Assembly (NCBI GenBank): GCA_036405895.1 | Contig: DASWWS010000002.1 | Coordinates: forward strand, 124,029 to 188,028 | DNA length: 64,000 nucleotides | DNA from: Minisyncoccota bacterium | Lineage (GTDB): Bacteria > Patescibacteriota > Minisyncoccia > Phycocordibacterales > UBA9973 | Direction: 5' to 3' | Shown: in pieces, positions 1,157 through 14,559 of the stretch | How the letters are laid out: the number at the start of each line of letters is the position of its first letter | Numbering within the stretch: the stretch's first letter is position 1 | Notes under the pieces: generated by a model | Told to the model about the DNA's origin: nothing | Databases searched by the model: none | Seen by the model: only the letters and a program-made list of their open reading frames with translations | Made by a program: the position numbers and the translations under genes

Positions 1157-1777
1157 TTATTCAGCAGGAGTGAAGAAGTAAACCGTTTTAAACATTACAA
1201 GTTCTTCATACATTTCATTTTCTACAACGTATTCTTTTCCAAACTGGTTTAGTTCGCTTAAATCAAAATTCTTTGGTATTTGCATTACGACTTTTTCAAA
1301 ATGTTTAAATGCAAGATCAAGTATTTCCTTTCCGGAAGGACTAAAATCTTCGAGAGTAAATTTCTCTTTTTGAGAATAATCAGGTCCGCCCCACGGTGGG
1401 GCTATGAACACTGCTTCCGCCTGAAGCTTTGGGGCTTCTTGGAAGTAGTCGCCAGTGATAAAAGTTACCTTGTCTTCAAGGCCATACACTCTAAGATTGT
1501 TTTTTGCCATTTCAATTCTTTGAGAATCAATTTCGATAGCATAGACATGCTCTGCGTGCTTTGCAAAACCGATTGTATTCCCTCCTATTCCGCAAAAGCC
1601 ATCTACTACAGTTCGAGCTCCGGTCTTTCGAGCATTCTTATCCGCAATATCTTCCGGTCCTACAGAATACAACCCTTCAATATCCGTCTGAATCCCCTCG
1701 TCAAATTTACTGAACTTGTTATATCTTCTGTCCCAGTATTTTTGATATTTTTCTCCAAAAGGATTTTCCTGTTTCAT
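1157..1777 (-). CDS. TGS1-like RNA cap guanine-N2 methyltransferase family protein (SAM-dependent)
   Basis: Motifs VVDGFCGIGGNTIGFA and IAPPWGGPDY match the TGS1/PF09445 signature. The ORF-track start at 1861 (MPPQAIY...) lies inside a repeated promoter-like element, so the internal Met (MKQENPFGEKY) is the more likely start. Confidence 0.6.
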   Translation of the reverse strand: MKQENPFGEKYQKYWDRRYNKFSKFDEGIQTDIEGLYSVGPEDIADKNARKTGARTVVDGFCGIGGNTIGFAKHAEHVYAIEIDSQRIEMAKNNLRVYGLEDKVTFITGDYFQEAPKLQAEAVFIAPPWGGPDYSQKEKFTLEDFSPSGKEILDLAFKHFEKVVMQIPKNFDLSELNQFGKEYVVENEMYEELVMFKTVYFFTPAE

Positions 1778-1812
1778 ATGTATAGTATACCAAAAGAGTT
1801 TGCGGAGTTTCG

Positions 1813-1950
1813 GTTTATAGTCGCTGTCGTTAAGAGACGAATAAATCGCTTGCGGAGGCATTATGTAGTCGCTAACGCTTCTTATAATGCACTGCGCAAA
1901 ATATGGTCGTATCTTCGATACTCCCTATTTTGCGGGCGTTGTGGCAGGAT
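1813..1950. repeat. 135-bp intergenic repeat, copy 1. About 90% identical to 3366-3500.
   Basis: Direct alignment of ...cgcttgcggaggcattat(g/a)tagtcgct(a/g)acgct(t/c)cttataatgcactgcgcaaaatatggtcg... It contains an 8-bp inverted repeat GCATTATA/TATAATGC and TATA(A)T boxes. At its distal end it carries a tRNA-3'-end-like core GCGGGCGTTGTGGCAGG. Confidence 0.8.
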
Positions 1951-1970
1951 GTTGGAACTTATTTAAGCAA

Positions 1971-2447
1971 CTACTCTTCTTTAAATATTCTAGAGTAATC
2001 AGACAACCCGGTATCTTTTAAGTCTTCTTCGATTAAATTCTTCGCTAAATCAAAATTTACAACAAAGCATAAAACTTCCATCGTACCACCCCCAATACTT
2101 CCTCCGTCACAATGACCCAAACCTCTCCATCCGAGAAATTCATTCATCCTACTTTCCAGATTGTGTCGCTTAGTCAAATCATTTTCTGATTCTATTTCAT
2201 CAACCTTGTATTCAATAACAAGCCTTTCTAAAAGTTCATCTGCTACTTCAGTATATCCCTCAATTATTTTCTGATCGTATTCTTTTTGAACTTCTTTTTT
2301 AAAACTTGAGAATATTCCTGAGCTGATTTCTCTCGATTGACCTTCTTCGCCAACCTTACCCCAATGAATAATTCCTGCTCTACCGCTTTTATCCCAAGTT
2401 TCCCAATAGAGTAAGCCGTCTCCAGTTTCTTTATATAGTTTTTCCAT
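1971..2447 (-). CDS. WGR-domain protein
   Basis: N-terminal LLYWETWDKSGRAGIIHWGKVGEEGQSREI...F.S...A...Y.QKIIEGY matches the WGR (W-G-R/K-x-G-x-x-GQ) pattern. The C-terminal ~90 aa has no known family. Confidence 0.55.
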   Translation of the reverse strand: MEKLYKETGDGLLYWETWDKSGRAGIIHWGKVGEEGQSREISSGIFSSFKKEVQKEYDQKIIEGYTEVADELLERLVIEYKVDEIESENDLTKRHNLESRMNEFLGWRGLGHCDGGSIGGGTMEVLCFVVNFDLAKNLIEEDLKDTGLSDYSRIFKEE

Positions 2448-2454
2448 GACAAAA

Positions 2455-2510
2455 TTATATCACGGTATAGCTGCGGGCGTTGTGGCAGAAGTTAGAATCT
2501 TTTTAATCAA
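2455..2510. repeat. Partial copy of the intergenic repeat and tRNA-3'-end-like core (GCTGCGGGCGTTGTGGCAGAAG)
   Basis: Shares CTGCCACAACGCCCGCA with the distal end of repeat copy 1. Confidence 0.6.
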
Positions 2511-2531
2511 TTCCAAATTCTAATAACCTTT

Positions 2532-3335
2532 CTATTTAAAAACCGTATCAATCTCTTTCACCAACCAGCTTCCGAGATTCTCTAGAGTATCCACTATTGT
2601 ATTTTTGTCAGAAGTTGGATTAACGGCAAGCTCTAACGCTTTGTACATTTCTTCCTTTTTCTCTGGATAGTATTTTGAGAATTCTTCATAACAAGGATAG
2701 AGGTCGCGTGTGTATTTCTGGGACCGTTCCATCACAAGCTCAAACCCTGAACGTATAATACGCTTCATAATCCAAGTACATCGACGCTTTATCTCTTCTT
2801 CACTACGCTCTTCTTGCAACCACTCTTTCGTCTTATTGATTTCTCGTTCGATGCCTTCAAAATGTTGAGCTGTATCTACGCCCGGCTTTAGAGCCGGAAG
2901 AGTACTAAAAAGATTGTTACCGTACACGCAGATACTTTGGGTCTTGATCATTATTCGATCCCCTTTCGAGTCTGGTATCTCTTCAAGTGGTACGACGCCT
3001 ATTTCTACTCCGACTATAAATGGAAATTGTTTCTTTACTTTTTCTACAAAATCTTTTGACCATTGGATATCAACGTCATCGTATGACACTGTAACAACAG
3101 CGAAACTGTCTATGTCGGAGATGTTGTTTATCGCTTGCCCCTTCGCTACCGAACCTCTTATATAGACACTGTGCAAATGTTCACCAAGGTGTTTTTGATA
3201 TGCATCTTTGACCATTTCAACCGCGGGCATCCATGCCGCCTGAATCTTTTCTGGTGATGTAGTATTGACGATAAAACCATCGGTATCAGTTTGCAAAAAT
3301 GATCCAATGGCTTGTACTTCGTTTTTCATGTCCAA
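2532..3335 (-). CDS. Nucleotidyltransferase of the aminoglycoside-adenylyltransferase (ANT/AadA-like, NTase + DUF4111-like) family
   Basis: YIRGSVAKGQAINNISDIDSFAVV matches the GS-x9-DxD Pol-beta-superfamily NTase motif. Size and C-terminal helical domain resemble AadA/ANT(9). No experimental basis for the substrate. Confidence 0.65.
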   Translation of the reverse strand: MDMKNEVQAIGSFLQTDTDGFIVNTTSPEKIQAAWMPAVEMVKDAYQKHLGEHLHSVYIRGSVAKGQAINNISDIDSFAVVTVSYDDVDIQWSKDFVEKVKKQFPFIVGVEIGVVPLEEIPDSKGDRIMIKTQSICVYGNNLFSTLPALKPGVDTAQHFEGIEREINKTKEWLQEERSEEEIKRRCTWIMKRIIRSGFELVMERSQKYTRDLYPCYEEFSKYYPEKKEEMYKALELAVNPTSDKNTIVDTLENLGSWLVKEIDTVFK

Positions 3336-3365
3336 ATTGTATCATGGGAAAGCTGCGGAGGTGGG

Positions 3366-3500
3366 TTTATAGTCGCTCTCGCTAAAAACAGAGTGGGTCG
3401 CTTGCGGAGGCATTATATAGTCGCTGACGCTCCTTATAATGCACTGCGCAAAATATGGTCGCACCTACGGTGCTTCCTATTTTGCGGAGGATGTGAGACG
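3366..3500. repeat. 135-bp intergenic repeat, copy 2, upstream of the NTase gene. It ends in a 15-nt copy of the 3' end of the adjacent tRNA (3484-3498).
   Basis: Aligned to 1813-1950. The distal core gcggaggatgtgaga is identical to the reverse complement of the tRNA 3' end at 3694-3708. Confidence 0.8.
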
Positions 3501-3693
3501 CTGAGCTATTCGCCCGCGAGTCTTTGTTTGATCAGTCACCAAACAAAGCTCTGGGCACCGGCTCAGTAGATTCTTCTGCTGAAGAATCATACTTCCGCCG
3601 TTCTCATCTCAACGTAAACCAAAGCAGTTTGGTTTACTCATCCTCCGCGAATAAAAATGGCCCAGATTTCTCTGGGACGCATTTTTATACTCG
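3501..3693. ncRNA. Structured ~190-nt tRNA-associated module A. It consists of a closing stem, three internal hairpins and a bidirectional terminator hairpin.
   Basis: Homologous to 4399-4579. Its hairpins covary with the second copy: GATTCTTC-TGCT-GAAGAATC vs GATTTCTT-TGCTA-AGAAATC, and GTAAACCAAA-GCAG-TTTGGTTTAC vs GCAATGCA-GTT-TGCATTGC. The terminator inner stem reads CCCAGA..TCTGGG here and CCGACC..GGTCGG in the other copy. The two ends are complementary: GCGGAGGATG..CATCCTCCGC. Confidence 0.5.
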
Positions 3694-3779
3694 CGGAGGA
3701 TGTGAGATTCGAACTCACGGGCCTTTAAGGGGCCGACGGTTTAGTAAACCGTTGATTTAAACCACTCATCCAATCCTCC
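3694..3779 (-). tRNA. Type-II (long variable arm) tRNA, Ser-like. The apparent anticodon is ACU, which is unusual.
   Basis: Hand-folded: acceptor GGAGGAT/ATCCTCC, T-arm GTGAG-TTCGAAT-CTCAC, variable arm GGCC-CCTTAAA-GGCC, anticodon stem ACGGT/ACCGT with loop TTACTAA. Discriminator G. No encoded CCA. Confidence 0.65.
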
Positions 3780-3833
3780 AGGACACCAATAAGTGTTTTG
3801 ATATCCTACCATACTCGCCTAAATAGAAAAGAA

Positions 3834-3868
3834 AACAGCCTAACGAGGACCGTCCTCGTTAGGCTGTT
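3834..3868. terminator. GGACNGTCC-core palindromic hairpin (AACAGCCTAACGAGGACCGTCCTCGTTAGGCTGTT) followed by TTTTT
   Basis: Perfect inverted repeat with a T-run. Member of a dispersed family listed in findings. Confidence 0.75.
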
Positions 3869-3880
3869 TTTAAGTACGTA

Positions 3881-4312
3881 TTAGTACTGAGGCTGAGGCT
3901 CGTGCTTCATCAAGCGCATCAGGTGCGAAAGCGAGTATCGGCCGGGACCCTGCACCAAAAGCGGGATGAGGGCTGCAATGAATACGAGGTTCACTTCCCA
4001 TCCGCCGAGGAATTCCATGTTCATCAAATTCTTTACAACAAATGCAGCAACAATCATGACAATAATAAGGAGGAATGAAACAATCTCGGTTCCAATACCC
4101 ACAATGAGCGCCAGACCGCCGATTGTTTCAACAAGCGTCACAATCCATGCCATGAGTCCCGCAAGCGGGAATCCCCATGCAACGAAGCCTTCCGTTACCG
4201 CCTCAATCCCCATGTTGAACTTCTGCAAGCCATGAAGGAAGAAAGCAATACCGACAATAATGCGGACAATCAACAGCGCTGTATTTATTTTGCCTTTGAA
4301 TATATTTCTCAT
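3881..4312 (-). CDS. DoxX-family integral membrane protein
   Basis: 143 aa with four predicted TM helices. LHGLQKF...GG motif typical of DoxX. Confidence 0.6.
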   Translation of the reverse strand: MRNIFKGKINTALLIVRIIVGIAFFLHGLQKFNMGIEAVTEGFVAWGFPLAGLMAWIVTLVETIGGLALIVGIGTEIVSFLLIIVMIVAAFVVKNLMNMEFLGGWEVNLVFIAALIPLLVQGPGRYSLSHLMRLMKHEPQPQY

Positions 4313-4345
4313 GTACTAAAGTGTATCACTGATAGGTATAACAGA

Positions 4346-4376
4346 AAACTAGCAAGGACGGTCCTTGCTAGTTTTT
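4346..4376. terminator. GGACGGTCC-core palindromic hairpin (CTAGCAAGGACGGTCCTTGCTAG) flanked by A/T runs
   Basis: Inverted repeat seen directly. Confidence 0.7.
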
Positions 4377-4398
4377 TATTTTTGCGGAGACGGCGAGA

Positions 4399-4579
4399 AT
4401 TTCTCCCTCGCCTCTCGTTGTGTCAGACACACTTCCTCGGGCTGGTCACCAGCTCAGTAGATTTCTTTGCTAAGAAATCATACTTCCGCTGTTCGAATCT
4501 CACCCGCAATGCAGTTTGCATTGCTCGTCTCCGCGAATAAAAATGGCCCGACATTAGGTCGGACTCATTTTTATACTCG
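4399..4579. ncRNA. Structured tRNA-associated module B, homologous to 3501-3693. It is bounded by a 15-nt copy of the tRNA-Ser 3' end at 4384-4398.
   Basis: See module A. Closing stem GCGGAGACG...CGTCTCCGC. Minus-strand T-arm-like GCGAG-GGAGAAATT-CTCGC. Terminator hairpin at 4531-4582. Confidence 0.5.
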
Positions 4580-4664
4580 CGGAGACGGCGAGATTCGAAC
4601 TCGCGAGGCTGTGACACCTGCCTCCTTAGCAAGGAGGTACAATCGACCACTCTGACACGTCTCC
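4580..4664 (-). tRNA. tRNA-Ser(GCU)
   Basis: Hand-folded: acceptor GGAGACG/CGTCTCC, anticodon stem CCTCC/GGAGG with loop TTGCTAA (anticodon GCT), long variable arm, T-arm GCGAG-TTCGAAT-CTCGC. Confidence 0.85.
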
Positions 4665-4725
4665 AGTACCGCCACTGTATCATGAAAATACAGTTTTTTA
4701 AAGACTACCCTGCTATACTCTATAC

Positions 4726-5025
4726 ATGACCACTACACACAAAGTACTTGTTGGAATTCTTATCATTATTGTTATTGCGCTTCTTGCGCGCTACGTTGTT
4801 TTTAAAGAAAAGTTCGATGAATGGGGTGCAGGACTCCAGCGTATTGAAGACTGGCAGACTGAGTACAAGCAAAAGAACCCAAATGCTTCCAAAGAAGAAA
4901 TGGATGCTGCATTTGAAGCTGGCATGGACAACATCACTGAGTGGAAAGCAGAGTATAAGCGCGATAATCCAGGCGCGACAGATGCCGAGGCGGATGCTGC
5001 ATTTTCCGCAATGTGGAATAACTAA
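4726..5025 (+). CDS. Small membrane-anchored protein with an internal ~28-aa duplication
   Basis: One N-terminal TM helix. Repeats EDWQTEYKQKNPNASKEEMDAAFEAGM and TEWKAEYKRDNPGATDAEADAAFSAMW. Confidence 0.45.
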   Translation: MTTTHKVLVGILIIIVIALLARYVVFKEKFDEWGAGLQRIEDWQTEYKQKNPNASKEEMDAAFEAGMDNITEWKAEYKRDNPGATDAEADAAFSAMWNN

Positions 5026-5041
5026 TTCTATTTACTGATAT

Positions 5042-5626
5042 ATGCAACCAACCGGAAAAATTCGACTTGAGGCATTCAGCGACGGAGTATTCGCTATTGC
5101 CATCACGCTCCTTGCGCTCGAGCTCCATGTCCCCGCCTTTCTTGGGACCACTTTCTTAGGTTCTCTCCACGAACTCATCCCACTGATTCCTTCAATGCTC
5201 ACCTTTGTACTCTCATTTATCACCATTGCAATCTTTTGGGTCAATCACCACCAGCTCACCCAAAACTTTAGCACCATCACCAAGCGGCGCATTCTTTGGT
5301 CAAATATCCTCTTTCTCCTCTTCTTAACCCTCATCCCCTTTGTTACCGCTGCCGTAAGCATCAGCCCGACTGCGCCCTTAGCAGTATTCTTCTACAGTTT
5401 AGTATTGCTTGGTTCATCGCTCTCCTTCACCCTTATGCGCTATTTTGTGCACAAAGGCTGCGGCCAAAGCCATATCCCCATGACCCGTAGCCTCATTGGA
5501 CCAATCGTGTACCTCCTTGCGGTTATTGCTTCGATTTTTTCAGTCTGGATTGCCTATTTTCTCCTTGCTATCCCGGCATTATTCTATTTCCTCCCAAAAG
5601 GGAGCCTCAAAGAGACAGATGAGTAG
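5042..5626 (+). CDS. TMEM175/DUF1211-family putative potassium channel
   Basis: Starts RLEAFSDGVFAIAITLLALE, the family signature, with six predicted TM helices. Confidence 0.7.
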   Translation: MQPTGKIRLEAFSDGVFAIAITLLALELHVPAFLGTTFLGSLHELIPLIPSMLTFVLSFITIAIFWVNHHQLTQNFSTITKRRILWSNILFLLFLTLIPFVTAAVSISPTAPLAVFFYSLVLLGSSLSFTLMRYFVHKGCGQSHIPMTRSLIGPIVYLLAVIASIFSVWIAYFLLAIPALFYFLPKGSLKETDE

Positions 5627-9372: not shown

Positions 9373-9576
9373 GGTCTATTTAGTTTTTATGGTTCAAATT
9401 TACTTTGTTTATTTTTTATATTATATCACTTTATTTATAAAAAGTCAATAGAGCTCCTCTGCCTAAAAATTGTCTTTTACGTCAGGACTGATAGAATCAA
9501 AGGGTTCTCATTTCCGCTCTTAGCTGTTTGGTGTACGGGCCAAGCAAGGTAGGGGTTATAGAAAATCAATATACTT

Positions 9577-9650
9577 CCGCTCTTAGCTCAGTTGGTTAGA
9601 GCGCCGAGCTTATACCTCGGTGGTCCATGGTTCGAATCCATGAGGGCGGA
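9577..9650 (+). tRNA. tRNA-Ile(UAU)
   Basis: Hand-folded: acceptor CCGCTCT/AGGGCGG (one G-U pair), D-arm GCTC-AGTTGGTTA-GAGC, anticodon stem CCGAG/CTCGG with loop CTTATAC, T-arm CATGG-TTCGAAT-CCATG. Confidence 0.8.
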
Positions 9651-9744
9651 CATTAAGTAAACAAATATGCAGTATGCCTCTGAGGCAATGGCGTGTAGCG
9701 TTTCGACCCCAGGGAGAGGCGGACAAGTGCTATACTGTACACAT

Positions 9745-10289: not shown

Positions 10290-12188
10290 TTAAAGCTCGA
10301 TTTTCTTTAATGGAATGCCGTGAGCGGAAATAATTGCTTCATATTCCGGCTGTTCGAGCGTTTCCACTTCGATTAGCTTTGCGGTGATTGCTTCGAGCAC
10401 ACCCTTGTGTTCGGTAAGAACAGTGCGGGCACGCTCAAATCCTTCTTTCATGATGCGCTGCACTTCGGAGTCGACAAGTGCACTAGTCTGCTCTGAATAT
10501 TCTTTTCCTTTCACTCCTTCGCCGAACATTGCGCGGCCTCCGTCGTTTTCAAGGGCAAGCGGGCCGATGGCATCGCTCATCCCCCATCGTGTCACCATGG
10601 CGCGTGCAAGCGCGGTTGCAACCTGAAGGTCGTTTGAAGGACCGGTTGTCACGTCCCCAAAGATTGATTCTTCTGCAACGTATCCTGCAAGCGACATTGC
10701 AATGTCGTCGAGATATTCTTTCTTGGTGGTAAGCTTTCGCTCTTCAAGCGGAAGCTTCAGCGTGTACCCACCGGCGCGCCCTCGTGCAACAATAGAAACT
10801 TTGTGCACCGGGTCAGCATCCGGAAGAACTGATGCAACAAGCGCATGCGCTGCTTCATGATACGCCGTGATTTTCTTTTCTTTCTTTGTCAGCAAATGGC
10901 TCTTGCGCTCAGGCCCGATCATCACTTTTTCAATGGAGCGTACAAGGTCAAACTGCGATATCTTCTTTCGATTTTCGCGTGCTGCCAAGATTGCACCTTC
11001 GTTCATTAATGAGTAGAGGTCGGCTCCGGAGAATCCGGGTGTGCGCTCTGCTATCACCTTGAGATTCACGTCTTCTGCAAACGGCTTTTTGGTGCTGTGC
11101 ACATTCAAAATGTCTTCGCGGTCGCGACGGTCTGGAAGGTCAAGCATCACTCGGCGGTCAAATCGGCCTGGACGCAACAGTGCTGGGTCCAATACATCGC
11201 TTCGGTTCGTTGCCGCCATCACGATTACCTTGTCGTTCGGTTCAAAGCCGTCCATCTCCACCAATATTTGGTTGAGTGTCTGTTCTCGCTCGTCGTTTCC
11301 ACCGCCATATCCGCCTCCGCGTACGCGTCCTACCGCATCAATTTCATCGATAAAAATAATGGACGGTGCTGCGCGCTTTGCCATCTTGAAAAGGTCGCGC
11401 ACGCGCGATGCGCCCACACCGACAAACATCTCAACAAATTCTGATCCTGAAAGATGGAAGAACGGCACACTTGCCTCCCCCGCTACAGCGCGAGCCAAGA
11501 GCGTCTTCCCTGTTCCTGGTGCACCGGCGAGCAATACTCCTTTTGGAATGCGCGCTCCGATATCCAAAAACTTTTTTGGATTCTTCAAAAAGTCCACAAT
11601 TTCTTTGAGTTCTTCCTTGGCTTCGCGCGCACCTGCAACATCTTTGAATGTTACCCTGTTTGTCGTATCGCTTGGGTCAGTGATGCGCGCTTTTGACTGC
11701 CCGAAATTAAATGCCTGCATGCCAGCACCCTTTGCCTGGCGTGTAAGCATCCAAAAAAAGAATCCAATCAATACTACCGGCAAAAGTATTGGGAGAATGG
11801 TAAGGAAAAAGAATGCGAGGCCTGATGCGCTGGCAACAGTAATGTCGACTGCGCTGATGCGAGGCTCTTCAACACCATATGCTGCCAATGTTTCCACCAA
11901 TGAAGCACTTGGTTCTTTTTTGCTTTCAAGAATTGTCTCGTCTGTTTTTGTAACAGTGAGCGCTTGGTCGTCGATGACAATGCTCTTCACCTCCCCTGCC
12001 TGCACAAGGCGTGCAACTTCTGAAAGGGTCACCACTTCGTTCTTTTCTGTCCCCATACCAGAGACAACAGAGTAGCCGGCAGTAAGGAGTGCGAAGATAA
12101 GGAGGGTTGAAAATATATAGGAAGAAAGAGAGCGCTTGGGAGGCGTCTTTTTTATAGGGTTCGGTGTAGGGATTTCTTGTTTGGACAT
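10290..12188 (-). CDS. ftsH: ATP-dependent zinc metalloprotease FtsH
   Basis: Walker A GAPGTGKT, second region of homology, and HEAAHA zinc motif. 632 aa. Confidence 0.95.
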
Positions 12189-12455
12189 AGGCTTTATTAT
12201 ACATAAAAACGATAAAAACGCCTTTTAGGGGGTATCGACCTCCAGGTTACTAAATATTTTTCAGGGTATCGCCTCACAAATCACTAAGCATAATTCTTCG
12301 CTCCACTCGAATTCTGCCAAGTGTTCGCGAGCCCGGCTCGGTTCCGCCATAGGCGGATACCTGCGCCTTTTCGATACCCACGCAAGACAAGCAGTTGCCC
12401 TGTTCCATCTCCACCTAAAAAACAAAAAACGCCCAAGGGCGCTAATGTTGTTACA
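12189..12455 (-). promoter_or_regulatory. Structured region between ssrA and ftsH with TATAAT 7 nt upstream of the ftsH ATG, repeated CGATACCC motifs, and the ssrA intrinsic terminator (12423-12446)
   Basis: Minus strand reads ...GCGCCCTTGGGCGC-TTTTTTGTTTTTT, a terminator. Three CGATACCC motifs follow. GTATAATAAAGCCT then ATG. Confidence 0.5.
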
Positions 12456-12841
12456 GGTGGAGATGGGGGTATCGAAACCCCGTGCAAATGATCACGAACA
12501 AGTACTTCTCCATGCGTAGTACGATTTAATTGTTAAGACAGAATCTCAAAACCGTACAAAACGATTCATGTCCGAGCCTCGATTGTTTCGGAGTACTGAC
12601 GAGACACGCAGTACTTCCTACGTTCGATGAATGTTGCCGCGACTACGTTATCGAACATCACGTAGAGCGACACCGGATTGACCTAAATTTAGGCGAATGC
12701 CGGAGCGAAGTTTCCAAAATATGGAGACTTCACTGATGCTGTGCTGTTGCCAGGTAAGCGTTCGGACGAATTTTACGAGATACGTCCATTCTCGGCATGC
12801 ATACAGGCCCGATACATCAAATGTCGAAACCTTTCATCCCC
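12456..12841 (-). ncRNA. ssrA: tmRNA (ssrA)
   Basis: Minus strand 5' end GGGGAUGAAAGGUUUCGAC matches the tmRNA 5' consensus. The GCAUGCCGAG...CUCGUAAAA PK1 region is almost identical to E. coli tmRNA. A tag reading frame ends ...GNFAPAFA-UAA (stop at 12689-12691). The 3' T-arm-like GGGGT-TTCGATA-CCCC is followed by acceptor strand CATCTCC-A-CC, which pairs with the 5' GGGGATG using one G-U. It is adjacent to smpB. Confidence 0.8.
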
Positions 12842-12863
12842 AAAGTTGCAATACAGAGCAACT

Positions 12864-13008
12864 TTGGCGCCAGGAGTCGTTTTCGACATTTGTCGAAAAC
12901 TATCGTGGTGCAAAAATTACTGTGCCCTGCTGAAGCTCCATAACAAATTTGGCGCCAGGAGATTTTTTTAGCTTCGCTAAAAAAATTCGTGGTGCAAAAG
13001 CGCCAGGA
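12864..13008. repeat. Tandem 85-bp repeat, 2.1 copies. Each unit is GGCGCCAGGAG-hairpin-TCGTGGTGCAAAA, lying between smpB and ssrA.
   Basis: Unit 1 hairpin GTTTTCGACA-TTT-GTCGAAAAC and unit 2 hairpin TTTTTTAGC-TTC-GCTAAAAAA show compensatory changes between the conserved flanks. Confidence 0.7.
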
Positions 13009-13032
13009 GTTCTATTTGGAAAATCACACTCT

Positions 13033-13473
13033 CTATTGAGCCCCTTCGCGCCTTAGCTCCCGATCAAGGTCGCGCGCTTTGAGCGTTTCTCGTTTGTCGA
13101 AGTTCTTTTTCCCTTTCGCTATTGCGATTTGTACCTTTACGATACTCCCTTTATTATACAACGATATAGGCACTACCGTCAAACCCTTGCTCGAAAGCGC
13201 CCGTAACAAATCATAGAGCTCTTTTTTATTCACTAAAAGCTTTCGGGTGCGATACGGATCATACGCCGAAGAAACATTCTTCTCCTGCCAGGCAGGAATA
13301 TGAGCGCCAAGAAGATAGAGTTCTCCCCCGAGCACTTGCACATAGGCCCCATTGAGGCTGCCGTGATTTGCTTTGAGGGATTTCACTTCAGTACCGAGAA
13401 GCTGTATGCCCGCTTCGAGTGTTTCCTCGAAAGAGTAGTCATGCGATGCTTTTTTATTCCGGATAAATTCCAT
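13033..13473 (-). CDS. smpB: SsrA-binding protein SmpB
   Basis: KKASHDYSFEETLEAGIQLLGTEVKSLK...RTRKLLVNKKE matches the SmpB family. Start moved to MEFIRNKK, since the ORF-track N-terminal extension is hydrophobic junk. Confidence 0.9.
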   Translation of the reverse strand: MEFIRNKKASHDYSFEETLEAGIQLLGTEVKSLKANHGSLNGAYVQVLGGELYLLGAHIPAWQEKNVSSAYDPYRTRKLLVNKKELYDLLRALSSKGLTVVPISLYNKGSIVKVQIAIAKGKKNFDKRETLKARDLDRELRREGAQ

Positions 13474-13975: not shown

Positions 13976-14559
13976 AGCTCAAGATCAATTCCAATTCCGA
14001 GCATTACGGCTTTTGGTCCGACAGTTGCCGAAACATTAAACAATCCAAGTGTGTACTGAGTACGAATACCGGTCACCGCTTCCGTTTGGCTATAGAGCCC
14101 GAGCGAAAGCTTCTCTCCTACTCCGTACATCACCGACGTCATTTGGAAAAATCCATACGGGCGAGAATAATACGGATTGGTGTACAGCATAAACTTCCCT
14201 TTCTGGCTCTCCTCTTGTGCATGCGATTCAAAATACGCATATGCATTAAGGCTTGCACTGGTGCGGCCCCGAGCAAAATCAATACCCGGGCCAAGTGAAA
14301 GTTCAACATAGTTATCGCCTGGTGCAAATGCAATCAAGGGCCCAAGAGAGACGCCCAGAAGCCCTGGTTCATTTACAACAAATCCAAATACCCCAACTCC
14401 TCGCTTGTTTGTATGAGCAAACGATGCCCATTGAAAAGTTTCAAGACCTTTTGCATCAAACTGTTTGGTTGCTTGAGCTTCGGCGCTTACAAGAGTTTGT
14501 TGCGCCATTGCTGTACTTGTTGCCACCAAGGCAAGAAGTACTGTGAGTAATTTCTTCAT
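13972..14559 (-). CDS. Secreted beta-rich hypothetical protein
   Basis: Signal peptide MKKLLTVLLALVATSTAMA. Alternating hydrophobic pattern. Confidence 0.5.
   Translation of the reverse strand: MKKLLTVLLALVATSTAMAQQTLVSAEAQATKQFDAKGLETFQWASFAHTNKRGVGVFGFVVNEPGLLGVSLGPLIAFAPGDNYVELSLGPGIDFARGRTSASLNAYAYFESHAQEESQKGKFMLYTNPYYSRPYGFFQMTSVMYGVGEKLSLGLYSQTEAVTGIRTQYTLGLFNVSATVGPKAVMLGIGIDLEL

Follow-up and report, generated by a model that had tools for sequence, protein, structure and literature searches.

A structured unit of about 200 bp with an antisense of its target gene end behind tRNA-Ser and tmRNA genes of Minisyncoccia: a candidate mini insertion element

A discrete unit of about 200 base pairs (bp) follows two transfer RNA (tRNA) genes and the transfer-messenger RNA (tmRNA) gene of a Minisyncoccota bacterium. 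We analyzed 64,000 nucleotides (nt) of its genome (GenBank assembly GCA_036405895.1, contig DASWWS010000002.1, positions 124,029 to 188,028 of the forward strand; this whole stretch is referred to as the window, and positions are counted from its first letter), in which tRNA-Ser(ACT), tRNA-Ser(GCT), and tmRNA are each followed by a terminator hairpin, T1, and a structured module. The unit is discrete, begins at one precise junction, is bounded by repeats of the gene end, contains an antisense of that same end, and displays both covariation of its stems and conservation among relatives. At about even odds, we regard T1 plus module as a non-autonomous mini insertion element, flanked by attachment (att) sites, which inserts at the 3' ends of tRNA and tmRNA genes and includes a structured RNA or single-stranded DNA. 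The unit contains no open reading frame (ORF) of its own.

The layout is the same behind both tRNA-Ser genes, comprising T1 (44 nt), the module (about 150-165 nt), and a 15-nt copy of the tRNA end. Besides a closing helix, the module has a side hairpin, HP1, and the larger arms P2 and P3; all parts are described here on the minus strand. The host gene of unit 1 is tRNA-Ser(ACT) (3694-3779; ARAGORN, and Rfam tRNA with 55 bits), whose last 22 nt (3693-3714) form the target segment R(L). Its anticodon, with A34, is unusual, and the adjoining tRNA-Ser(GCT) already reads the same codon box. The inserted unit opens with T1 (3649-3692), built of an A-run, a GC hairpin, and a T-run, and continues with the antisense R' (3600-3648). 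The latter is split into two pieces, GCGGAGGATG (3639-3648) and TGAGATGAGAAC (3600-3611), which are interrupted by AG, HP1 (3615-3636, loop CTGC), and CGT. The P2 arm (3559-3600), identified by minimum free energy (MFE) folds, a helix table, and covariation in nine copies, consists of a 4-bp stem CGGC/GCCG, a conserved internal loop GGA/GA, a stem AGTA/TACT, a bulged T, and an 8-bp apical hairpin with the loop AGCA. The P3 domain (3501-3558) has an outer stem TGCCC/GGGCG, a middle stem GAG/CTC, and a variable apical hairpin with the conserved loop GACTG, and ends in a GGGCGAAT motif and a linker. The last part, the 3' strand of P1b and P1 (3484-3500), holds the 15-nt repeat R(R) (3484-3498). 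In unit 2, the host gene is tRNA-Ser(GCT) (4580-4664; ARAGORN and Rfam) with the target segment at 4579-4600, followed by T1 (4535-4578) and module M2 (4384-4534), which is composed of R'a with an AG linker (4524-4534), HP1 (4507-4523), R'b (4491-4503), P2 (4450-4491), P3 (4399-4449), and the 15-nt repeat (4384-4398). The whole T arm recurs, in diverged form, upstream of this repeat (GGCGAG GGAGAAAT TCTCGCC).

Both 15-nt direct repeats, TCTCACATCCTCCGC (3484-3498) and TCTCGCCGTCTCCGC (4384-4398), are perfect copies of tRNA positions 60-74, and on the tRNA strand their 12-nt cores are each found at two places only in the window. They pair with GCGGAGGATG (3639-3648) and GCGGAGACG (4526-4534), located just past T1, to form a closing stem of 9-10 bp, which is complemented by a second helix of 5-7 bp. 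The original prediction, made from the letters of this DNA, had described two tRNA-Ser genes, each with a terminator hairpin, three more hairpins, and a 15-nt repeat of the tRNA 3' end, and all of these were recovered by ARAGORN, Rfam, and inspection of the sequence. Its proposal that the repeat pairs to close the module also stands; the partner, however, is not next to the tRNA as proposed, but lies past T1 at a distance of 44 nt. Both units have identical outer parts of T1, while the inner stems differ in a compensatory manner (CCCAGA/TCTGGG versus CCGAC/GTCGG), and every compensatory stem difference quoted in the original prediction is present in the sequence. A terminator consensus scan called nine sites in the region versus 1.4 expected, including T1 of both units on both strands, and with its GC-rich hairpin followed by a T-run, T1 is an intrinsic (Rho-independent) terminator by composition. 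Compared to shuffled sequences, the fold energies of the units were exceptionally low (z = -10.45 for unit 1 and -8.14 for unit 2), and 0 of 200 shuffles were as stable.

A third, diverged copy of the unit (T type; 12228-12456, minus strand) follows the tmRNA gene (12457-12841, minus strand; Rfam tmRNA, 108.7 bits), whose last 21 nt (12457-12477) constitute the target. It comprises T1 (12415-12456), R'a with an AA linker (12403-12414), HP1 (12383-12402), R'b (12366-12379), P2 (12334-12368), and a 3' domain (12272-12333). Read in order, T1 is followed by GTGGAGATGG, the complement of the tmRNA 3' acceptor strand, a side hairpin with the loop CTGC, GGGTATCG, the complement of the 3' strand of T-loop and T-stem, and the homologous P2 arm. 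The 3' repeat of this copy is decayed or duplicated/rearranged (12228-12271) and lacks the acceptor part ATCTCCAC. We fetched syntenic DNA of other assemblies via neighbouring proteins (these stretches carry L-numbers as labels), and intact T-type orthologues were found in L022 (2179-2339, within a unit spanning 2139-2339), L029 (10820-11019; also in L030), and L041 (10835-11037; L041-L043), with tmRNA-end repeats of 18-20 nt. Besides its tmRNA-linked copy, L022 contains a copy linked to tRNA-Ser(ACT) (c1) and a free copy (c2, 14279-14483), and L001 contains one free copy. The question raised by the original prediction, i.e., whether copies always sit 3' of tRNA-Ser, is answered in the negative by the tmRNA-linked and the two free copies. 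In total, nine distinct copies were found in five related Paceibacterota/Minisyncoccia assemblies of the candidate phyla radiation (CPR), and a profile search of all gathered DNA revealed no further ones. Scans of larger collections demanded exact matches to the conserved P2 core, so that the family is possibly wider; they returned one true match in the genome collection (L001), nine chance matches only in the metagenome collection, and five chance matches only in the viral contigs. With Rfam 15, applied to both module types at gathering and at permissive thresholds, nothing passed within the modules and only tRNA and tmRNA passed in the window, the sub-threshold signals being hairpin-like microRNA matches and a 20-bit fragment match to group II introns. 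Literature searches did not retrieve a described equivalent either. The suggestion that the module is undescribed is thus in line with the absence of any matching Rfam family. Exchange between copies occurs as well: the tmRNA-linked copy in L022 has the HP1 of the serine type, L022 c1 has a P3 tip like that of M2, and M2 and L001 share a core of approximately 86% identity, with wholly different T1, antisense, HP1, and repeat.

The most distinctive property of the module, which the original prediction did not contain, is its built-in antisense. Without HP1 and the linkers on either side of it, the 5' part of the module reads as a 21-23-nt reverse complement of the upstream gene end, spanning the T-loop (G53/T54) to C74. 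Among the copies next to tRNA-Ser, the antisense matches the upstream gene at 20/22 positions in M1 of the window, 21/22 in M2, and 20/22 in L022 c1, and the corresponding values for the tmRNA type are 21/21 in L022, 21/21 in the window, 20/21 in L029, and 23/23 in L041. Matches to the module's own 3' end are shorter, amounting in the same order to 15/15, 14/15, 9/9, 18/18, 8/8, 17/18, and 12/12. At least 20 of the 21-23 positions are thereby matched in all seven gene-adjacent copies, and the distal repeat is damaged in three of the seven (L022 c1, the tmRNA copy of the window, and L041). The antisense furthermore tracks the species-specific T arm of tmRNA, which reads CGATACCC in L022 versus AACTCCCC in L041. 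As the antisense complements the gene end, gene end, T1, and antisense together form one long, near-perfect palindrome. The MFE fold of the full transcript of tRNA, T1, and module, a thermodynamic prediction, pairs the tRNA 3' end with the antisense and the tRNA 5' strand with the distal repeat. A primer-binding site of a retroelement was considered for the antisense and rejected, since the segment stops at C74 and goes on into the gene flank, and is not a complement of CCA.

The same helices could be taken for a tRNA mimic, in which the closing helices imitate acceptor and T stems and serve as a substrate or decoy for tRNA enzymes, candidates being RNase P, RNase Z, the CCA-adding enzyme, seryl- or alanyl-tRNA synthetase, or a tRNA-directed toxin. 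In keeping with this, the 5' strand corresponds to the acceptor strand of tRNA-Ser, the helix is continuous over positions 60-72, and unit 2 retains a T-arm-like hairpin beside the 3' strand of the acceptor. However, the antisense is the Watson-Crick complement of the 3' strand and not a copy of the 5' strand, and each of the four tmRNA-linked copies has A-U in place of G3·U70, the pair that confers alanine identity. N73 and C74 are paired as well, which leaves no free acceptor end, the T-loop is absent or altered, and neither the tRNA nor the tmRNA model of Rfam matches the module. Loss of G3·U70 and pairing of N73-C74 led us to reject a mimic for synthetases specifically, and we consider mimicry of tRNA in general highly improbable. 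Compared to tRNA-like RNAs (tmRNA domain, YrlA, and viral ones), the module likewise has a replaced T-loop and paired N73/C74, and it matches no Y RNA model.

Covariation of the stems had been taken in the original prediction as a sign of a selected RNA structure, which the larger set of copies supports. We aligned five helices (P1, HP1, P1b, and the lower and middle stems of P2; 102 columns) by hand for the nine copies; this alignment was made with the structure in mind and the variable apical parts were left out, and single-sequence MFE folds made earlier had already given P1, HP1, and P2 in each copy as well as P1b in M1. The helices written out for the nine copies comprise 306 Watson-Crick cells, 10 G·U cells, and 11 mismatches (one of them A·C). 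On the 102-column alignment, 94.2% of the cells are paired, compared to 33-46% when the partners were slid by 1-3 columns. Both sides have changed in 26 of the 35 pairs, and the observed values were attained in 0 of 500 shuffles. Double changes in HP1 (7/9 pairs) and in the two P2 stems (4/8) weigh most, because they are independent of the helices that match the target. Compensatory variants also occupy the place of the P3 apical hairpin in M2 and in the L001 and L022 copies. The tRNA-sense strand is indicated as the folding strand by the ratio of G·U to A·C (10:1), and the reverse complement folds 6-9 kcal/mol worse in the three copies compared. For the same two reasons, we discarded a small RNA of the opposite strand that ends in T1. 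Judged by these patterns, the structure appears to be selected, and to be selected on the tRNA-sense strand. The strand being fixed, RNA and single-stranded DNA fit alike, since G·T pairs are tolerated in DNA too. Loop motifs are retained as well: all nine copies have G-N-A/G-A in P2, six of them have CTGC in HP1, and the M type has GACTG/GTCTG in P3. When the window is compared with L022, identity amounts to 90% for the M1 orthologue, 91% for T1, and 77% for the T type, compared to 46-60% at four-fold degenerate sites. Such values suggest either purifying selection on the unit or its recent renewal by homing or exchange, and the data do not separate the two.

Comparison of the same genes in relatives revealed that the unit is present at some and absent from others. 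Behind tRNA-Ser(ACT), which is identical in sequence in the window, L022, and L024, the unit occupies the site in the window and L022, and the site is empty in L024, where ..CCTCCGC is directly followed by CATTAGC and CCA is encoded. Behind tRNA-Ser(GCT), only the window is filled, and L022, L024, and L044 are empty; in L044, the gene is followed by CCGC, then directly by AAATAAAAAT and a terminator, similar to the flank past the M2 repeat in the window. Behind tmRNA, the module is found in the window, L022, L029/L030, and L041-L043, and it is lacking in L025, L026, L031, and L045; in L034, a recombinase island lies directly behind the gene in place of the module. T1 is also missing at the empty sites of tRNA-Ser(ACT) (L024) and tRNA-Ser(GCT) (L022, L024, and L044), and at every filled site, the junction lies directly after C74. 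Empty tRNA-Ser sites, for which the original prediction had recommended a search, therefore exist for both genes, and the att-like hallmark it emphasized is reinforced by presence or absence at the same genes with one precise junction, as well as by tRNA- and tmRNA-end repeats flanking other inserts. It had also held that absence from related genomes or a non-conserved position relative to tRNA-Ser would speak against the module. Each is partly the case, but the pattern is one of insertion polymorphism and not of noise, because the empty sites are clean, the filled sites share one junction, and the free copies sit at look-alike sites. As a side observation on this locus, tRNA-Ser(GCT) and its promoter-like region (4579-4720, minus strand) share the strand of DoxX in the window and L044, and are opposite to DoxX in L022, L023, and L024 (L022 9812-9901 and L024 9813-9900; compare L044 9376-9461). 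A small inversion around tRNA-Ser(GCT) has therefore taken place in one lineage.

The two free copies indicate what belongs to the unit itself. L022 c2 lies inside a dispersed repeat, X, other copies of which are uninterrupted in L022. The left repeat of c2 is X's own CACAACGCCCGC, and its right repeat (CACATCCTCCGC) and antisense are the exact tRNA-Ser(ACT) version. The free copy of L001 is flanked by TCCCATACGGCTA and TCCCTGTCGGGTA, its antisense fits the right one, no tRNA-Ser is nearby, and outside the module, L001 bears no similarity to the window. In both cases, the perfect repeat that matches the antisense is the distal one, which is the opposite of what a displaced fragment of the native gene would lead one to expect; at tRNA sites, the two repeats are identical. 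As the free copies come with their own repeat and antisense, the unit carries both and can sit at look-alike sites.

If the unit is a mini insertion element, the antisense would pair either with the target end or with the unit's own terminal copy and would thereby choose the site. Pairing with the terminal copy would set the two ends of the unit side by side at the foot of T1 in a continuous helix, where strand exchange might be carried out by a recombinase encoded elsewhere, possibly of the large serine type that occupies the same gene ends in relatives. T1 would keep the host tRNA or tmRNA properly terminated, and the folded RNA would arise by read-through from the host gene. Several observations weigh against such an element. 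Standing ahead of the module, T1 has the look of an efficient terminator and should block read-through, and no convincing promoter was found for the module. Among the approximately 40 ORFs of the window, Pfam returned no match to a recombinase, transposase, or reverse transcriptase, and no autonomous relative with the module was found in the viral contigs. Copy number is low, with at most three copies seen per genome and five related assemblies known as carriers, and an identity of 77-90% at orthologous positions fits vertical retention, as expected for a host function, as well as homing. L022 c2 may have arisen by homologous recombination via the shared right flank instead of insertion. Finally, the point of crossover implied by the free copies is the right end of the repeat, but analogy with genomic islands predicts the T-loop. 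Scans of the viral contigs with tRNA- and tmRNA-end sequences for an autonomous parent returned phage tRNAs and permuted two-piece tmRNA genes only. The latter (L047-L054) are circularly permuted phage tmRNA genes, which are unrelated to the module; their acceptor/T-arm piece equals the Paceibacterota tmRNA end over 18 nt.

The main rival is a host-beneficial non-coding RNA that is produced by read-through. Through its antisense, this RNA would bind the 3'-terminal 21-23 nt of the precursor of the upstream RNA and steer maturation, quality control, or the fate of read-through transcripts, e.g., by providing a long duplex for a double-strand RNase, with the distal sense copy as an internal competitor and presence or absence of the unit reflecting gain and loss. 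This would explain why all seven gene-adjacent copies lie on the strand of the host gene, why the antisense is kept when the distal repeat is damaged, and why identity is far above that of silent sites. The conserved loop motifs of HP1, P2, and P3 and the MFE fold joining the tRNA 3' end to the antisense agree with it as well. The unit is dispensable, however, as close relatives do without it at each of the three genes, and two copies have no tRNA beside them, and in one case the copy lies antisense to the genes on either side. T1 should end most transcription ahead of the module, and several copies are visibly decaying. Moreover, quasipalindrome (template-switch) correction can maintain the arm identity of long inverted repeats without selection. 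On balance, we regard a host RNA as doubtful, but as the strongest of the alternatives; passive scars of island integration and the tRNA mimic are much less likely.

Islands that target tRNA and tmRNA genes are bounded by direct repeats of the gene 3' end (PMC4383910; PMC3146451), and for the ssrA islands of Dehalococcoides, tmRNA-end repeats and a conserved motif upstream of the repeat have been published (PMC3146451). The unit resembles these islands in its targets (tRNA-Ser and tmRNA), in its placement between an intact gene and a displaced 3'-end copy from about the T-loop to the end, and in a motif that immediately precedes the distal repeat. Further shared features are inserts arranged in tandem or by accretion, the existence of members devoid of recombination genes, and large serine recombinase genes at the same gene ends in relatives of the window genome. 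Thus, the unit has the 3'-end location, the direct repeat, and the clean empty sites of an island, but no recombinase was found in the element or among the approximately 40 window ORFs. The unit further differs by its size (about 200 bp compared to several kb or more), its lack of any protein gene, its covarying single-strand fold, its 21-23-nt target antisense, and the distal position of the perfect repeat in free copies, which is contrary to a crossover in the T-loop.

In these genomes, the ends of tRNA genes are hot spots of recombination, and other inserts at the same or similar gene ends add to this comparison. In L034, a gene for a large serine recombinase of 524 amino acids (3788-5362) begins right behind the tmRNA end, and in L011, a large serine recombinase gene abuts the end of tRNA-Asn. 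As a side note, L034 and L031 (3838-3890) diverge after ..CTCCACATAA, where sister strains hold only a terminator. Behind tRNA-Ile(TAT) in L025 (15325-15420) and L026 (15444-15545), a 60-nt insert lies between perfect 19-21-nt repeats of the tRNA end; it includes the conserved TGGCGCGTAGCGTTTCGAC...GGAGAGGCGA and no antisense segment, and the corresponding site of L022 is empty. The tRNA-Ile(TAT) of the window (9577-9651, plus strand) is followed, approximately 70 nt downstream, by a decayed copy of its 3' end, GGCGGACA (within 9652-9730, plus strand). Two further observations on this gene are that 15 nt of its 5' end recur roughly 60 nt upstream (9513-9527, plus strand) with a single mismatch, and that its anticodon, called in seven related genomes too, is unusual. 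In L041 (11038-11437), the tmRNA module is succeeded by a cassette of about 370 nt. It combines a promoter-like TTGACT and a terminator with a small, Cys-rich ORF of lipoprotein-like kind, and the tmRNA end recurs for the third time at its close (CCCCCATCTCCACAAATTAAA). Ahead of the distal repeat, the motif GAGAGGCGA/GAGGCGA is present in the tRNA-Ile insert, in M2, in the L001 copy, and in three of the four copies of the tmRNA type.

These data could also be explained by passive scars of island integration, i.e., attL and attR cores with 200 bp left between them after internal deletion and hairpins without a function. Indeed, tRNA-Ser and tmRNA are classical island targets (PMC4383910; PMC3146451), other repeat-bounded inserts and recombinase islands occupy the same gene ends in relatives, and the shared motif before the distal repeat of several insert types resembles that of Dehalococcoides (PMC3146451). 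Homologous modules behind three genes, with covarying stems and an identity of 77-90% compared to 46-60% at silent sites, are nevertheless unlike decaying remnants, and known double-stranded att sites do not accommodate an antisense of 21-23 nt that is located 44 nt inside and fitted anew to every target. Scars of this kind are therefore, in our estimation, distinctly improbable.

A more far-reaching version of the mobile-element reading is a protein-free element whose homing is guided by nucleic acid, or the guide part of a recombinase acting in trans, which we consider unlikely. Here, the split antisense would pair with the segment from T-loop to C74 of the gene or its transcript and so pick the insertion point. 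Pairing with the unit's own terminal copy would abut its 3' end and the foot of T1, creating a junction that could be ligated or exchanged, and a circular single-stranded form of about 200 nt could recombine with any site that ends in a matching sequence. Among known systems, the unit may be compared with group II introns (exon- and intron-binding sites EBS1/EBS2-IBS1/IBS2; class C behind terminators), which are also located 3' of a sequence complementary to two separated internal segments and are associated with terminator hairpins. The unit, by contrast, has no catalytic domains, intron ends, or reverse transcriptase, is far too small at 150-200 nt, and carries a terminal copy of the target, which introns lack. 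Group II models gave only the partial 20-bit fragment match in M2 (threshold 49) and none in the tmRNA type, and group II introns are reported to be absent from Patescibacteria (PMC13011429). Group I models returned no match, and a group I intron with P1 across T1 was rejected for want of a core, a model match, and a U·G at the junction. We likewise rejected a kissing interaction of the HP1 loop (CUGC) with the P2 loop (AGCA), as it is not conserved in the tmRNA type.

Folded single-stranded DNA sites are known from integrons (attC) and from the CTX phage, whose attP hairpin mimics dif. As in these, inverted segments of the unit can fold into a target-like duplex, structure prevails over sequence, and cassettes in arrays are bounded by such sites. 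No link to an integron integrase or Xer was found, however, and differences are the absence of R/L boxes and a GTTRRRY core, the extra conserved P2/P3 core of the unit, and tRNA-like genes as targets. R2 and its internally deleted derivatives in 28S rRNA genes, like tRNA-derived short interspersed elements, are co-transcribed with a host RNA gene. They share with the unit a small size, the lack of genes, one precise site in a highly expressed RNA gene on the same strand, a 5' region that pairs with the host gene, and tRNA-derived parts. The unit is bacterial, however, with no evidence for reverse transcription, no Rfam ribozyme match, and no A-rich tail, and its flanks are not simple target-site duplications, since left and right differ in L022 c2. 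That difference (CACAACGCCCGC versus CACATCCTCCGC) also sets it apart from miniature inverted-repeat transposable elements, as does its inverted copy, which is internal (44 nt from the left end) and split by a hairpin. Regarding guide RNAs of the IscB/TnpB omega type or the IS110 bridge type, no common neighbour gene exists in the window, L001, and L022, and Rfam returned no match to HEARO or related models.

The surroundings of unit 1 contain further repeats of the tRNA-end kind. The flank past unit 1 (3330-3483, minus strand) comprises a hairpin, T2 (3448-3483), and two degenerate repeats ending in CCTCCGCA, and it is homologous to the right part of X. One copy of X, in which GTTCCAACATCCTGCCACAACGCCCGC is directly followed by AAAATAGG and which also includes a hairpin, lies at 1890-1958 (minus strand) between single genes downstream of tRNA-Ser(ACT), and a shorter copy at 2470-2496 (minus strand). 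The X regions extend over 1771-1991, 2441-2531, and 3330-3483 in the window (minus strand), and over 10833-10898, 11364-11454, 13320-13450, and 15356 in L022. X is made up of a tRNA-end-like core (CACAACGCCCGC), a hairpin that has the final bases of this core in its stem, and another core, ..CCTCCGC, before a promoter-like TATAAT. It separates single genes, all on the tRNA strand, downstream of tRNA-Ser(ACT) in the window and L022; none is found at the module-free locus of L024. From its layout, the X region looks like a tRNA-anchored array of small cassettes. Such repeat-bounded cassettes, the tmRNA-linked subtype, and the imperfect similarity of M2 to a whole T arm are additions to the original prediction, along with the antisense.

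Genes beside this array were recorded as well. A gene for a nucleotidyltransferase-like protein of 267 amino acids lies just downstream of unit 1 (2532-3335, minus strand), a context that is variable, and homologues with 78% identity adjoin DUF5659 and large serine recombinases (L011 6001-9509 and L016 4378-7867). Together with genes for a WGR domain and a cap-type methyltransferase, it belongs to a set of window genes (1157-3335) that look like acquired cassettes. A link between the unit and a nucleotidyltransferase toxin modifying tRNA-Ser was dropped, as the homologues occur in unrelated contexts and none with the module. At the tmRNA locus, the gap between smpB and the tmRNA 5' end (window 12842-13010, minus strand; L022 1580-1755) contains two to three repeats in a conserved arrangement, each consisting of TTGCACCACGA, a variable AT-rich hairpin, and CTCCTGGCGCC.

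What the unit means depends on which explanation applies. If it is mobile, it would rank among the smallest site-specific elements known, with about 200 nt, no gene, and a specificity that resides in a base-pairing segment varying by subtype. It would link att sites in tRNA genes with guide-based targeting and may offer a simple programmable targeting module. Should nucleic acid-guided homing prove true, a change in a hairpin arm would re-programme the target, as between tRNA-Ser(ACT), tRNA-Ser(GCT), tmRNA, and an unidentified tRNA in the case of L001, and the repeat-bounded single-gene cassettes could be caught by the same machinery, forming a tRNA-anchored, integron-like array. RNA processing in CPR bacteria is poorly known, and if the unit is a host RNA, it would represent a new class of cis-antisense acting on the precursors of tRNA-Ser and tmRNA in these bacteria with reduced genomes. 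Either way, it accounts for the accumulation, in these genomes, of unusual additional hairpins and pieces of tRNA 3' ends behind tRNA genes, and points to arrays of repeat-bounded single-gene cassettes beside tRNA-Ser(ACT).

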